From: an uncultured Rickettsiales bacterium
Lineage (GTDB): Bacteria; Margulisbacteria; Marinamargulisbacteria; GCA-2716485; CAZIFG01
Direction: 5' to 3'
Assembly: GCA_964539135.1 (NCBI GenBank)
Contig: CAZIFG010000005.1
Location: 2,335 to 66,334 of the forward strand
DNA length: 64,000 bases
The translations under genes were made by a program, and so were the position numbers. Every line of letters begins with the position of its first letter. Position 1 is the first letter of the stretch. Shown one piece after another: positions 49,601 through 51,364 of this stretch. The notes below the pieces were generated by a model. It worked only from the letters and a program-made list of their open reading frames with translations, made no database searches and had not been told where the DNA came from.

Positions 49601-51364
49601 TTTTGTAACGGTAAACCTAGGAAAGTCCGCCTCGGTAATTTTAACATAGTAAGTGGGTTGTTCTTTTTGTAGACGCTTAATCTGTGTGCTAAGAGTATTA
49701 ATTTCTGTTTGAAGGGCTGTAAACCTAGGATTGGGTTGCCGATCCTCTGTATAAAGAGGGGTGCTAGAGAGTAATTCCCGCTTAGCCGCAAGTTCTGCTT
49801 GTTTTTCAAAAATAGATTGGGCCTTGCCCGTAAAGTCAGTGTTATCAAGAAAAGCCATGGTGGTAGCAGATAAAAGGCCCTCGGGGTCATTGGGCGATTG
49901 ATTCATAACGGCAAATTGGGGATTATTACGAAATGAAGCTTTAAAAGTATTAAGATCGAGAGACGCAGTATAAGAATTTCCACCAGACCCACCAGAAAGC
50001 GTAAACGGCAGCTTTATTTCCCGATAAAGAGCGCCATTAAAAGAGCGAGGCACGGTAAAATCTTGGAGCATTTTAGCGTTGATAGCCTGAGCCATTTCAT
50101 TAATTTTAAAAATAAGCGTATCTTTATTGGCTTGATAAGCTTGAAGAAGAGTGGAGTCTGCGCTCCTTGCGACGCCATAAGCTCTTTTGTCAACCAAAAA
50201 AAACTCTTTATCGGCTCTGCCAGCACCTAAACCGGTAAAAGCACTGCGTGCTGTAAGAGGGGTCGCAAGTTGGGTGGCGGTTCTAAAGGCTTCTGTAATA
50301 GGGCCTCGTTGAATAAAGACCTCATGATTCATATCGACGATGCTTTTAAATGCCAATTGAGAGGCTAAAATGCCACCTGTTTCGCCCGTAGCATCCAATA
50401 GAAGGGCTTCGCTTTCAGGCGAGGCCTTAAACGTAACCAAGGCATGGCCTACAGGAAGGGAGTTGTCTGGAGTGACGTAACCAGCAGAAACCATCACCAT
50501 CTGAGAAATACGTTTAGAAGAGAACCCCTTTTCTTGCAGGGCAGAAGAGAGCAGGGAAGCGGTAAGAATAGCCAAATCTTCACAATCTCCGCTTTTTTGA
50601 GAGAGCGTTCGATCCACAGTTTGCCATTCATCTTTAACAAGGCCTCGAGAATCGACACCGTCTTGTTTGTAGTTAAAGTTGTCTTGGACATAGCTTAAAA
50701 CTTTTTCAGCTATTTCGGTGGCAGACATGGATTTATTTAAAATACGCTCTTTAAAAAGTCGGGTTTTAAGCGCTTGAATATCACGATTATTCGGTTCAAC
50801 AAGCTGAGACCTGCGTCTAAATTCAACCTCTTGCGGTGTCATGCCTGTAATTTCCATGAGGCTCGCACGTGCTTTTTTAGACTCTTGTAGTTGAAGGTAA
50901 TGATCATCACTTAGGGTGCTGTCGCAGGCGGCAATACAGGTTTTAATGTCGCGCAGTCCCTTTAGAGCATCAGACGATAAGCGAAGGTGTTGAGAAACCT
51001 CTGGAGTTGAAAAAAGTTGGGCAATTGTGTGAACCAGCTCCAGTTCTTTTGCAGAAAGCGTAGAAGGACCGTGGTCCACAAAAACATTCCAAAGATCTTG
51101 AATATCTTTAGGAGAAATAGAGCCTGAAAGATGCTGAAAAACACCACTTTGAGGCAGTGCTTTTTTAAGCGCCTCACGAGCATGAACATTAGAAACAGGA
51201 GAGGATGTGGAGAGCGAGTATGTATCAAAAGGAGTATCCAAGAGGTCATTGAGGGGTGAATTGGCCCGATAAAGCAAAGAAAGACGATGGAGTTCTGAAA
51301 CCTCAGAGGCAGTTAAAGATGCGGTTGTTGAAGTAAAAGACGTCGGTGTCCTTAGATCCGTCAT
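34673..51364 (-). CDS. giant protein (5,563 aa) with an N-terminal transglutaminase-like cysteine protease core, otherwise unassignable
   Basis: Single uninterrupted 16,692-nt ORF. Every ORF overlapping it is 162 aa or shorter. Confidence 0.9.
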   Translation of the reverse strand: MTDLRTPTSFTSTTASLTASEVSELHRLSLLYRANSPLNDLLDTPFDTYSLSTSSPVSNVHAREALKKALPQSGVFQHLSGSISPKDIQDLWNVFVDHGPSTLSAKELELVHTIAQLFSTPEVSQHLRLSSDALKGLRDIKTCIAACDSTLSDDHYLQLQESKKARASLMEITGMTPQEVEFRRRSQLVEPNNRDIQALKTRLFKERILNKSMSATEIAEKVLSYVQDNFNYKQDGVDSRGLVKDEWQTVDRTLSQKSGDCEDLAILTASLLSSALQEKGFSSKRISQMVMVSAGYVTPDNSLPVGHALVTFKASPESEALLLDATGETGGILASQLAFKSIVDMNHEVFIQRGPITEAFRTATQLATPLTARSAFTGLGAGRADKEFFLVDKRAYGVARSADSTLLQAYQANKDTLIFKINEMAQAINAKMLQDFTVPRSFNGALYREIKLPFTLSGGSGGNSYTASLDLNTFKASFRNNPQFAVMNQSPNDPEGLLSATTMAFLDNTDFTGKAQSIFEKQAELAAKRELLSSTPLYTEDRQPNPRFTALQTEINTLSTQIKRLQKEQPTYYVKITEADFPRFTVTKPDGTKVITANPSPGSGTSASATDPKPYPFFDVNIHPRFELRDQSSEAAQAIGNVLSFSANDSIAGLTDIHSVSINPEGFYDFIAKLRLQTQDLTVFATAILAVYDEVGKASEAFKLESVSDAEKRALKESGDKSTLKIGMDALQGIVDSIAQGLNELSDQMFTYISETNDVTFQTKLFNIDQWLQEFDMSNAAEAGNADSNASAVTTYILSTLRGAAPSIFDELTGSISYIRAQAKHYINQLQLQVTAENTLARNEYFKRITTGRLFPDPSTGEPYRVGGISLLRKDPTTEFVNTGLLSRIQGPRTSTIGGSSDDTSPPSSSSSTSRTMYDIFYSTKEINAAQGIHFSKDHIEEYMASTKTAINSLMTKANESFDPSSRGSVYKIGQSLGRFSIDLNHLENTETSPLFHGADASQTATFSRPPDVNIKEALTAALGLAAARTAIQVGSSFASTTLLGVAGAITTVKTGFEIYSQIERYGTLDSTHAPVFVDLNMEREVEFRQNLVSFQLFAHTTQLVLVAQLEAILQATAEFNASQPNNYVTQLLNRTKAFMGNELQAQKQAFEETHHSINMLTDSVNALITSRASYYKAYWTQLIRSTGLAIQSALKITATAVTTNYLGAPLYAALKKWHIDQDITLPADRVAAATAPDATSKAAAEAKLATDTGLHLANVLGFNAQLDAGKVWFYDPDRPPAGIFNVPLSNFNFMMDLLTFTPGHYITAIQKKLEYHLEKGIIEYRNPGILQQSKDPYGAAARSAYREDGFTFEPGHGSRYSYSNIEKYEDFLSSQQPVTDPNHLYGSFSLDIPRGFSDTLLPRDDSPAPTASSTAIGFVDALSNDLMLLRLKQRKEFSGDKTQTFHNGYASYQVKGVPGEPNSSNPNAPSGYGLSFIEERGDGLLTYNGLLAAVKHQNTVTLQLAIEFRLLILRAILDALDSAIALFAERSKRGYAGYQQAGSFDAIGVVVGLENDLGNDLSREIQGALFSSWNQNLEKDRTIFELDFEAEKANAKASGSLIRYRPRLLVKNTGPEAAIYPEKELGKDPGLEAFDAFDLAIEMADYYRKLARGPYLGYLASYHRDGNVGDREANINTVANRGDSLVGGAGYTDQPIRDGQTDLFNKPAGSALNTKIAEGGAYTADLRQFLPNRADLDDPSKDTRILRTSRTSDEKNAHILSETTHKNRLLAPFFHQTELEKDALLTLIKKGDVPLEKRFTTMKFQQVDFNTVTEVQQKLTTVSANRSIYLMVLQSYWDALNQEVARFSGMQSSIGAINTAASMADIYNSKQTAIMDSLVEELNNRVASKNAYEKYVLDAWVTGVGFMVASILLGAAKLLDRVAKPSMTRAALRKLVKIPSVMATTRAISEFLIGIIQISSINTKPPLNEDSLKAITNATIGNSDEKAQEAEALRAEKRDLENKANAGGLTQSEKERLNSINFSLAAFGSSTASQVTSGKLRTQINQNSQNTGTQNQFYGLNEKKAIRFSGRGRFILNPALKAKANMKLKRQFRQMKVLTKVFLALQSAELNAIADLSGRSAGSTGRLSSIVGAYEQNDARVLDLIFRKLQNTVDARNEALDRVKKGAVTATTALLKQATETLLKRFKGGRIEALEKDRAKTVLKQKESTQSDEKKIKELKEKKAKETDTAKQTEIQKKIDSKEKALTKKRQNHADALAKQDKKIQGLKDKKALGAQKKALESAIAINERGSAATGLGATYDSTQHRDLKRTVGSNNSARTQLARGFLKMLGHASPYIALRLFDAAAQGIAHLAQLTGLSDNFDINSTDLERMGETDTLDPYAGAAEDSVFPSSDFTNGIDFAGISGLENAILSAGITKGNLQVLNLYLQEDKEDIAAVADGLRSLKAAFYAKMKKSLMEGHLFTLHLPTGLINRLFNMHLRDSISVNTPWQGHYKTIEPLAMESTDTANAFLKKLEKDPKLKEAYLIGDEKRFFSKRPTAAVLNVLPTSAQARIQRAFGFVGVDFASEPDAPTRYASARLEALAKDHADFKKRVSAATEAYTKAAEAAASDPSNTALQAKSAAAAKALEKASEVSFQDASTALEKAKEDSTAELKILKAARDSVKNKIFPNFISRFLSMFSRSAKSQFANTKFPLSVSDIDKFLQGNTTPLTNADRKVIQKALSRAYSKEKLLLDTDSLRSTFKQLKQEGKRNEKLNRAEITEKKDTLDTVVANHSEKALSKLSEDEKLEKFKGTLESLGSDAKPTTVAEARAEFDKVIQAKRDALPKEAEVAKSKLKTFGLAIGDGALTAGIIAIELLALLLIKIFQFFHMIGFRNDVSDSLSFLNRDIRDHGKIRKLRGYSLGEALDTLGDAKDPKLSKKKATTFEEIRAEHRLEADKSRKLTEASLEQALNPDLDVVADRDSTRLEQQDKAILALDKATDLDGVRLTRRQQVALGVMQRNHIKALNAIKAMRGPESLGPRSPKLADDDTLQKMQTMLQESADAGETTFNDSATSEARHVAILDALKKAYEANPDPTQKAHLDKIRDILFESSALKARAILTSSLDRATLIQKSASNPTDASTSLTTKLYASKTLSADEEAQLKLLFPEDAMFNSKKTEMLQMREAAANRDLVQGLSGTRLLDGSPEGVAAAQGKLTSQNLTTLSQFDSGYALLQHAESGAGVQLNSLLTQAYLAEDGSPEQTAAIQKTAAYLQAFADPQNQVQARVLRHLFYELSRDRNKHLLSMLTKAIGKIDSGKDDSETRNFVLKALEESTAENGTQSFISPTSKSVDLRGKSWLGAAGTAGWTMLKRTFAGSSKFSFSLFGLNKGAKGSVIREADHNANDALIARQNFSDRIHQSDIFSDKTFVQSFLEADSDGANLIANFNDSTKPQALVKKLADSGNGLLDALIADLSKPGANAKLLAHLVDFKAHLKGQEASRATAVLAVKELKDKTDILSKAAKLTEPALRVLIDPETAAPEDPNLTDLKAVRDQFLDAIKDKLSTDPAAAAQELAEFLKKLDGPINRDVVRKFALEIANKVLLLDQDKLETFLTTLGTNLQSHQELATFFKTELVNGVQGAAAGAALMGPLGIRPVDRIWGSFASNHKVAGFTDALVAIARTNPAKAVDLLTSLSQEVVTHVGTGAEPQSTINVIKNMEKAVMAVMAGIDKSNATALAAAQTQVTRLQTTLQTHLNALISQRVLSDSDATISVALGMRAVPASLSKAQIETIQKQTQKLMDFQDRSGDLLSSEVPNPEYYAQLQGVSTLCQLFLEADTHLTVTLSAPGAVPVPAGPAPLPAALSELNAAQHTALQSGDISTLGTALGTPPSQAGLTAIKDNFPQAYLKLLQSLDDSPYGDAVPADLQLVKDNDAFFKPDGTFGDLNALLGTPHPERSLVLMAQVNPSAAKALLTVSPADRTRILTEINPANLTHDKGTLNRLLAPLKDAEADTLMPGFRRMLDQTKRLTASIQPGADYTLQFNAAAYAGIRAEVAAHKEALKTQTPPTVDNFLKLQPTCSPESLGALLKLMATVTAPTPQLRALFSDITQELAKATLRAVASFPALATGGLPDLADPALTGIINTALPGVLDGVPGITNTHLGRLSAVLPDAKLQAHSAVRDLSGMTAGQLVRELTSFSNPSIGVVKLASTLSEMSQKGLLKDDHLSDLSVSINSLSLADRALFRALLPSTLTLNPTTYPPLSKDTPEPTGTLVNLHKALTSGDTSAILTAVTALKTDTSFGSDAARFSALGAFASGPQSKALTEALSSPAGLSLAGWMRSSPDAATLPSILKATVPLVDTTSTPTVSKQEIQTAIASNPSSLMDILSRSPGSSDAVFDQLLAVTTRHEFGSKLPEPLAKLLFSKDATFLTTLYETLKLSHPSKLHQFSRLMASLTRSVMRPEHPNFPHTTLKADIQNTIPFLQALQGPLNPTIGKEQLAGITRQMEQFLASHPIESREILKTMGKTAGSDKKQIKFVTNLLFKTLVSHEAISSGKSIATSIEKDYKFIMSLPKDSPLRQAMLDKFTDTRGLFYSYLSPVQHRIDADRVTESRDAAKDLLSKSDPLSPTETESLLKSLILEGNTQSKDGPVNIRALELAPGAPWKDRYQNLRIHLENLAKFAMQDPTTPENQETLQLLGQFAAAMSKYQPISGPRLNPDFLLKLMTSHANVSASSHDATQAGAVGSSEQDLSKVTGQVSRYGSVDNLDPAIGTANLRALKVISPDRQILGAKPILDDRGFVMRPINQGLSKQSLAAALDDIDFPTSADKQATVDQLFVQLSSAADGTAILDGSDPAATSRSFNPQLFESGFDARAIMSFAKLDSLDVIKELRADHDELTGAGERAERANAIQARLSALILKHAWQDFQDLQTIQGSLSPNPAISAGSSPSLSPELKTAVDTLNAAFNKEQEGYRTLSQLETNYELPAGTLLARLKEQGFATGGVISMPRDRMVDLSDFPHLNLKEDALRTIHDTICAVQSPREMVLSAFSSGYGEDLLFLPNERTVDVTRSVHTHADIRGSKKWSGSQYADSYLSTRLHVDDQVHVLNRYANFNDPSLKPEKQKFKREGFERFLLSAKETIGADGRPLLLSMLLHPQLSADARRDILNFVGSGAVFNTPSTDPSIRPFTTLRTNVQRLLVGLTNPVHHSETRTQAQLLADIALKFPHEFRQFHAAAVDTTRPTYPVEWGSAHKSSAQALFDQLHLSAKVSDSSAKILFDSLLPATTPQASYDALKAICLGGSAAPVSDDDASSVYSDSSSISDVSSIATKPPLVNSSPSSLMTVLISLKEMSSQSAVPKDALKKLGVTLLQHARSQGVTLTTLLQGLTGSDQEAHFLPTAVRLLTESVDAATLKSLGYNPLQEEQGLYRYTVSGQAPARAGGIKGDSGAFIDTFDRPRYRLAEDAPAHTLLKGFSSSSVADQKATLPQILFALKAPTGGDTSPVGGTDDASTVDGDDTSTVGSGDGSTVGGVPLFADLGADDASTVDGNDALDNWDDPDFTFDDRDAPRGSEFDYEGGYE
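34771..34926 (-). repeat. degenerate 24-27-nt tandem repeats encoding acidic [D/G]-D-x-S-T-V-[D/G]-G octapeptides at the giant protein C-terminus
   Basis: The protein reads GDTSPVGG TDDASTVDG DDTSTVGS GDGSTVGG ... ADDASTVDG. At the DNA level, CATCTACAGTGCTCGCATCATCAG occurs at about 34774 and again at about 34872. Confidence 0.75.
42737..42853 (-). other. strongly hydrophobic segment in the middle of the giant protein (aa 2838-2876)
   Basis: LKTFGLAIGDGALTAGIIAIELLALLLIKIFQFFHMIGF. A second TM-like helix AWVTGVGFMVASILLGAAKLL lies at aa 1900-1920 (nt 45606-45667). Confidence 0.5.
50330..50722 (-). other. transglutaminase-like / papain-fold Cys-His-Asp core within the giant ORF (aa ~215-345)
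   Basis: QKSGDCEDLAILTASLL (Cys261; TGT is the reverse complement of 50582-50584), then VGHALVTF (His307) and LLLDATGE (Asp324). The spacing is C-46-H-17-D, as in transglutaminase-core domains. Confidence 0.6.

Follow-up and report, generated by a model that had tools for sequence, protein, structure and literature searches.

The periplasmic cysteine proteases LapG and DvhG (BTLCP family, Peptidase C93, PF06035; structures 4FGO, 4FGP, 4FGQ and 4U65) adopt a transglutaminase-like fold with catalytic residues in the order Cys-His-Asp, the His and the Asp being 17 residues apart. They are stand-alone enzymes of ~200-250 amino acids (aa) with a signal peptide, and their partners are a type I secretion system, a cyclic di-GMP receptor (LapD or DvhD) and an adhesin that is cut at [T/A/P]AAG. 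The giant proteins (~5,000 aa) that LapG handles are its substrates. The LapG variant C135A is inactive (PMC3032545), both structures of LapG show calcium ions adjoining the triad (PMC4359373), and in DvhG the substitutions D316A/E318A, on either side of C317, abolish calcium-dependent proteolysis, as does C317A (PMC13090378). Here we analyze a 64,000-nucleotide stretch (hereafter the window) of contig CAZIFG010000005.1 (assembly GCA_964539135.1), from an uncultured bacterium placed in the Marinamargulisbacteria by GTDB, which encodes a 5,563-aa protein (hereafter the giant). Whether compared by sequence profile or by structure, a domain located near the N-terminus of this protein (hereafter the head) finds its best match in LapG.

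Margulisbacteria, an uncultured lineage that is sister to Cyanobacteria, have small genomes of 0.5-2 Mb; in the NCBI taxonomy the class is put in the Cyanobacteriota/Melainabacteria group. Two surveys of huge proteins (bioRxiv 10.1101/2023.11.21.568195; PMC11573180) count the phylum among those with an enrichment in proteins of 5,000 aa or more; they give no function or domain for the Margulisbacteria proteins, with no COG assignable in one, and neither mentions a transglutaminase-like or cysteine-protease domain.

Catalytic motifs and sequence-profile evidence

The giant is the product of a single uninterrupted open reading frame (ORF; 34673..51364, minus strand, 16.7 kb), starts with MTDLRTPTSF and has a predicted mass of 603 kDa and an isoelectric point (pI) of 6.3. 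A first-pass annotation, made from the letters of the DNA and the ORF translations, had proposed that it contains a Cys-His-Asp core ordered as in the transglutaminase/papain-like fold. All of the motifs on which this proposal relied were found in one frame of the minus strand within the giant ORF, and their residue numbers, C261, H307 and D324, were correct (Table 1). The catalytic core, aa 215-345, is the part of the protein encoded by the interval that had been marked, 50330-50722. C261 is one of seven cysteines in the 5,563 residues of the protein. The giant had also been described as devoid of a Sec signal, which fits with the lack of any hydrophobic segment before aa 1511.

Two generic Pfam models recognize the domain. 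DUF553 (PF04473, transglutaminase-like) reaches 29.2 bits with a 500-aa fragment and 31.1 bits with the isolated domain, above its cut-off of 20.5, and Transglut_core (PF01841), a kinship that the first-pass annotation had anticipated, passes its cut-off of 23 on the isolated 241-aa domain (24.2 bits; 22.6 bits on the 500-aa fragment) and is found in 32 of 38 family members. These matches span the Cys half of the domain only (aa 205-274), and the two models are silent on chemistry and substrate. Using the single sequence to search the PDB, Legionella LapG (4fgo) was retrieved at an expectation value (E) of 7e-4 with the Cys, His and Asp aligned, while a profile built from the 38 sequences of the family gave E 6e-10 for 4fgo and E 3e-8 for P. 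fluorescens LapG (4u65_E). Comparison of the same family profile with 24 stand-alone ~200-aa proteins bearing PF06035, carried out with hhalign, gave a probability of 99.7% (E 1e-25) and superposed the GDCED, GH and LD columns of the two groups. The BTLCP affinity, for which the first-pass annotation had advised a profile search, stands at the level of family profiles and fails for the PF06035 model itself, as discussed below. A word-indexed protein search with aa 1-700 returned no match, and one with the domain profile returned short stand-alone BTLCP-like proteins only, missing the giants.

The details of the alignment are consistent with this affinity. The distance between His and Asp is 17 residues in the giant as in LapG, whereas the Cys and the His are separated by 46 residues compared to 35 in LapG because of an 11-residue insertion. 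The G-D-C-E-D nucleophile/calcium-site signature of LapG and its upstream D-x-W motif are also found in the head, and the acidic residues D260 and E262, on either side of C261, are, at the sequence level, equivalent to those that form the calcium-binding site of LapG-type proteases. Altogether, four independent lines of evidence (curated profiles, solved structures searched by sequence, profile-profile comparison and the predicted structure described below) confirm membership of the transglutaminase-like/papain-like cysteine peptidase superfamily, which goes far beyond chance resemblance. The sequence comparisons further support the view that the domain is specifically LapG/BTLCP-like, calcium-site signature included, and that this is a family-wide feature rather than a one-off.

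Predicted structure of the head

The fold that the first-pass annotation had anticipated was recovered by structure prediction. A model computed with AlphaFold from the single sequence was discarded (predicted local distance difference test, pLDDT, of 35), and an alignment-based model of aa 165-~370 was used instead (pLDDT 87.4; predicted template modelling score, pTM, 0.83). In this model C261 opens a long helix (model residues 97-114), H307 lies in the next strand (141-148) and D324 is found just past the following strand (157-159), a predicted layout that is the papain/transglutaminase arrangement. The six best matches obtained with Foldseek against the PDB are all LapG, with E about 1e-7 and template modelling scores of 0.54-0.62 when normalized by target. 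They are followed by a putative cysteine protease of Cytophaga (3isr), CPR-C4, TglA, PNGase and the pseudomurein endoisopeptidases PeiW/PeiP; the Foldseek probability is 1.00 for LapG, 3isr and CPR-C4. In addition to the 11-residue insertion, the head differs from LapG by an additional N-terminal helical bundle.

Conservation in a family of giant proteins

Residues 1-1200 were used as the query of an exhaustive HMMER search, which recovered 77 relatives; 24 of these lie below 1e-30. The majority are 4,000-7,800 aa long and are matched at their N-terminus, the domain being located mostly at their aa ~150-360. In a scan of species-representative genomes (a set outside of which the source genome lies), the closest relatives, with 38-46% identity in the core, belong to metagenome-assembled genomes of 'Candidatus Marinamargulisbacteria', Margulisiibacteriota and 'UBP8_UBA817'. 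When the domain was aligned with 75 homologues, G259, C261, D263, W247 and Y232 were invariant (75/75), D260 was conserved in 74 and E262 in 73; D245 is invariant in the A2 alignment. The residue at position 307 is a His in 69 of the 75 homologues, four of the other six being gaps in fragments, such that two covering sequences do not have it. Position 324 is occupied by Asp in 60 sequences, Glu in seven and Asn in three, with a gap in the remaining five. Conservation of the triad at an overall identity of 22-46% argues for a working active site.

Comparison of the giant by blastp with the 36 members of the family that exceed 2,000 aa delineated an N-terminal module of ~2,250 residues that is conserved throughout the family, followed by ~3,300 non-conserved residues (Table 1). 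The head is the most conserved part of this module in giants of Marinamargulisbacteria and related Margulisbacteria. The C-terminal tails are unrelated from one member to the next. No PDB or database relatives beyond the family were found for the block at aa 1790-2260, including by word-indexed search. Hydrophobic segments are located at aa 1511-1529, 1897-1915 and 2850-2868 of the giant, and segments resembling membrane helices recur across the family within or shortly after the conserved module. The acidic, D/G-rich tail that ends the protein (34676-35000, minus strand, aa ~5455-5563) contains three DDASTVDG-like units; the last 110 aa comprise 24 D+E and 5 K+R, and this tail is not conserved in other members. 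Searches of aa 401-5563 against Pfam, NCBIfam and PDB sequences revealed no second enzymatic domain, and Pfam scans of four orthologues detected the LapG-like head as their single domain. Because these searches were negative, the earlier assertion that the core is the sole catalytic-type motif of the giant holds for the remaining 5,100 residues at this sensitivity.

Many members of the family (P0009, P0011, P0017, P0021, P0025-P0027, P0029, P0034, P0035 and P0037) share an M-W-A-x-x-(L/I) start, absent from the protein of the window, that could be a subfamily-specific N-terminal signal. A subfamily of ~2,000 aa in Margulisbacteria carries the same head, and some loci contain two heads within 3-6 kb, as tandem genes or by duplication (L012, 9617-15832 and ~16330; L014, ~9998 and ~14579; L017, ~10007 and ~13100).

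Probable activity of the head and alternative explanations

We consider it likely that aa ~165-370 constitute a transglutaminase-fold cysteine peptidase domain, closest to BTLCP/LapG, and predict that it is an active, calcium-requiring thiol hydrolase, most probably an endopeptidase. An active enzyme that needs calcium is expected because the triad C261/H307/D324 is retained together with the acidic residues D260 and E262. Free calcium is very low in the bacterial cytoplasm, hence a calcium requirement would hold the head inactive until it is outside the cell and could act as a safety catch that is released there. Such a mechanism supposes that the giant, or at least its N-terminus, would reach the cell exterior, where the head might cut either the giant itself or a partner or target protein; the cell envelope and host or prey proteins, which the first-pass annotation had named as possible targets, are speculative candidates. 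A comparable organization is found in the cysteine protease domains (CPDs) of MARTX and large clostridial toxins, in which a very large protein without a Sec signal harbours a thiol protease that remains inactive until its cofactor is met outside the producer. The fold of these CPDs is caspase-like, their activator is inositol hexakisphosphate, and they occupy an internal position. They serve here as a working analogy for a calcium-gated head, from which they differ by fold, cofactor and position, and the Pfam and Foldseek searches produced no CPD sequence or structure match.

Several observations weigh against this interpretation. The head matches the LapG model of NCBIfam (NF045674) across aa 208-325, which encompass all three triad residues, with 19.1 bits for a cut-off of 320, and the curated LapG models are therefore not reached. 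The BTLCP model PF06035 does not match the giant at E up to 1, and matches just five of the 38 family members at E below 0.01. The architecture is unlike that of LapG, as the head occupies aa 165-370 of a protein of 600 kDa without signal peptide. None of the partners of LapG was recognized in the Pfam-scanned ORFs, which comprise most but not all ORFs of the window, be it a LapD-like receptor, type I secretion genes or an adhesin with di-alanine sites. Moreover, [T/A/P]AAG sites are not in excess in the giant itself (one observed compared to 0.99 expected). The adjacency of Cys, His and Asp is deduced from the topology of the model and the match to LapG, calcium binding by the head is read from a sequence motif, and export is an inferred step. 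Finally, the triad and fold are common to proteases, transglutaminases, deamidases and amidases, such that they do not fix the chemistry. In its active site the head is predicted to work like LapG, yet it is neither a canonical LapG nor a member of the Lap system. Self-cleavage at a LapG-type site was dropped as a candidate because the [T/A/P]AAG motif is unenriched and its position is not kept in orthologues.

Given this shared fold and triad, the head could instead be an acyl-transferase or an amidase, namely a transglutaminase that cross-links the giant to a surface or to itself, a cell-wall isopeptidase or a toxin that deamidates glutamine. This view draws on the structural matches to TglA, PNGase and PeiW/PeiP (E 0.004-0.02), on weak viral matches that include a phage pseudomurein endoisopeptidase and a 'papain fold toxin, glutamine deamidase', and on the fact that the top Pfam matches are generic transglutaminase-like models. 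We nevertheless find it considerably less probable, since the E-values place LapG-type proteases nearest in both sequence and structure, with a lead of several orders of magnitude, and since the D-C-E calcium-site signature is typical of BTLCP proteases. That the fold alone has been kept, as a catalytically dead scaffold or binding module, is unlikely. Axonemal proteins with inactive transglutaminase-like domains are found among the structural matches (9y6s, 9e5c and 8glv), and the third residue of the triad varies between D, E and N. Yet pseudoenzymes normally lose precisely the catalytic residues that are retained here, with the Cys present in every homologue and the His in all but two covering sequences despite low overall identity, and in a protein that is nearly Cys-free. 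The richness of the giant in Ala, Leu and Ser, its status as a singleton cluster and its location on one 90-kb contig might have suggested that a long ORF of low complexity resembles the catalytic core by chance, or that the ORF is an assembly artefact. This explanation is already refuted by profile, profile-profile and structural evidence that is significant throughout, by the 77 homologues, among them dozens of independent giants in other assemblies, and by the fact that an open frame of 16.7 kb at 42% GC (guanine plus cytosine) cannot be due to chance.

A LapG-like cysteine peptidase domain on a giant protein is the opposite of the established scheme, where the giant adhesin cleaved by LapG is a separate protein. 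Domains of this type are known, and an automated pipeline would annotate this one as 'transglutaminase-like'. What appears to be undescribed is that it is LapG-like, that it is fused to the N-terminus of a giant and that a family based on this head extends across Margulisbacteria. With its intact triad and calcium-site signature, the head provides a first recognizable and testable feature for the huge proteins of Margulisbacteria, for which a domain map is now available, with a hypervariable tail after a conserved N-terminal module of 2,250 aa. That a single gene accounts for ~1% of the genome and keeps its syntenic position across the lineage implies that it is strongly selected, plausibly for a role at the cell surface or in interaction with a host. 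The phylum includes an intracellular animal symbiont, a member of the class that lives inside a placozoan.

Features of the locus and genomic neighbourhood

Table 1. Coordinates in the window of the head, of other parts of the giant and of neighbouring genes
Feature	Position	Strand	Basis or remarks
Motif GDCEDLAILTASLL	aa 259-272, 50549-50590; C261 = 50582-50584	-	ORF translation
Motif VGHALVTF	aa 305-312, 50429-50452; H307 = 50444-50446	-	ORF translation
Motif LLLDATGE	aa 321-328, 50381-50404; D324 = 50393-50395	-	ORF translation
LapG/BTLCP-like transglutaminase-fold cysteine peptidase domain (predicted)	50255..50872 (aa 165-370)	-	Confidently modelled: N-terminal helical bundle and catalytic core
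G259-D260-C261-E262-D263, candidate nucleophile Cys between acidic residues	50576..50590	-	Conservation, model, equivalence to LapG-type calcium site
H307, candidate catalytic His	50444..50446	-	Conservation; model strand 141-148; aligned with LapG His
D324, candidate third triad residue	50393..50395	-	Conservation; directly after model strand 157-159; His+17 as in LapG
D245-E246-W247, D-x-W motif upstream of nucleophile	50624..50632	-	Common to LapG (DDYW); alignment to 4fgo
N-terminal module conserved family-wide	44615..51082 (aa ~95-2250)	-	Blocks 95-450, 650-890, 1070-1215 and 1420-2250 by blastp
Non-conserved C-terminal ~3,300 aa	34676..44584	-	Sole family match weak: aa 4945-5445 to P0006
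o203, small upstream gene, about 182 aa from Met22, pI 5.3	51523..52134	-	Adjacent to giant gene in eight other loci
o277, o104, o204, o269, downstream, co-directional	32096..34676	-	Start of o277 overlaps stop of giant
Cassette o280-o591-o288	55600-59317	+	Beside head gene in seven loci: window, L001, L014, L016, L093, L101, L106
Flagellar export/switch cluster: FliM, MinD/ParA-type ATPase, FliN, FliP, FliR, FlhB, FlhA, then sigma-70 region-4 protein	870-9677	+	Pfam scans

The gene of the giant has a GC content of 44.4% compared to 41.5% for its flanks, and its GC and GC3 (GC at third codon positions) resemble those of the flanks. The locus of L001 (UBP8_UBA817) shares eight neighbouring genes with the window in the same order. 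Together with the lineage of the relatives, these properties indicate a resident, vertically inherited chromosomal gene; recent horizontal transfer or carriage by a mobile element was rejected on the grounds of flank-like GC and GC3 and conserved synteny. Secretion by a type I system through a C-terminal signal, which the D/G-rich tail might suggest, is unsupported, the tails being unconserved and the scanned ORFs containing no ATP-binding cassette (ABC), membrane fusion protein (MFP) or TolC genes.

The small gene o203 neighbours the giant in L001, L003, L004, L005, L010, L080, L082 and L083, in the last of which the two are divergent. It has no family or PDB match and may encode a dedicated partner or chaperone of the giant. 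Among the downstream genes, o104 and o269 each encode a protein with one transmembrane segment and o204 a Pro-rich protein. Homologues of o277 and o269 also adjoin the giant in L080 (2649-5264), yet upstream and on the opposite strand. The cassette o280-o591-o288 consists of two K/E-rich proteins without assigned family and a 288-aa hook/rod protein of the FlgE/F/G family (TIGR03506, 98 bits). Its orientation relative to the head gene varies, from divergent at some loci to co-directional at others, and either functional linkage or old synteny could account for this proximity. The cluster of flagellar genes at the other end of the window means that the organism encodes a flagellar type III export gate; the sigma-70 region-4 protein that follows FlhA may be FliA.

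These surroundings allow a speculative reading, to which we give little credence at present, in which giants with a protease head would be a lineage-defining, vertically inherited system of secreted effectors or surface proteins of Margulisbacteria. Non-Sec export would possibly proceed by the flagellar type III apparatus with o203 as the chaperone, and calcium would switch the head on outside the cell. The hints are a polar N-terminus without signal, the pairing of o203 with the giant in nine loci, the FlgE/F/G-family cassette in seven loci in both orientations, the export-gate genes of the window and the hypervariable 3,300 C-terminal residues, which fit a host- or prey-facing part. Conserved synteny by descent explains these features of the genomic neighbourhood equally well.

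Two small ORFs, o109 and o135, lie between o203 and the o860 gene (52219-52995, plus strand). Neither has a family match, and o135 is kept in L001 and L010. On the other side of the giant, a single transfer RNA gene (32017-32089, plus strand; Rfam, 68.8 bits) is located directly after the last gene of the putative operon to which the giant belongs.

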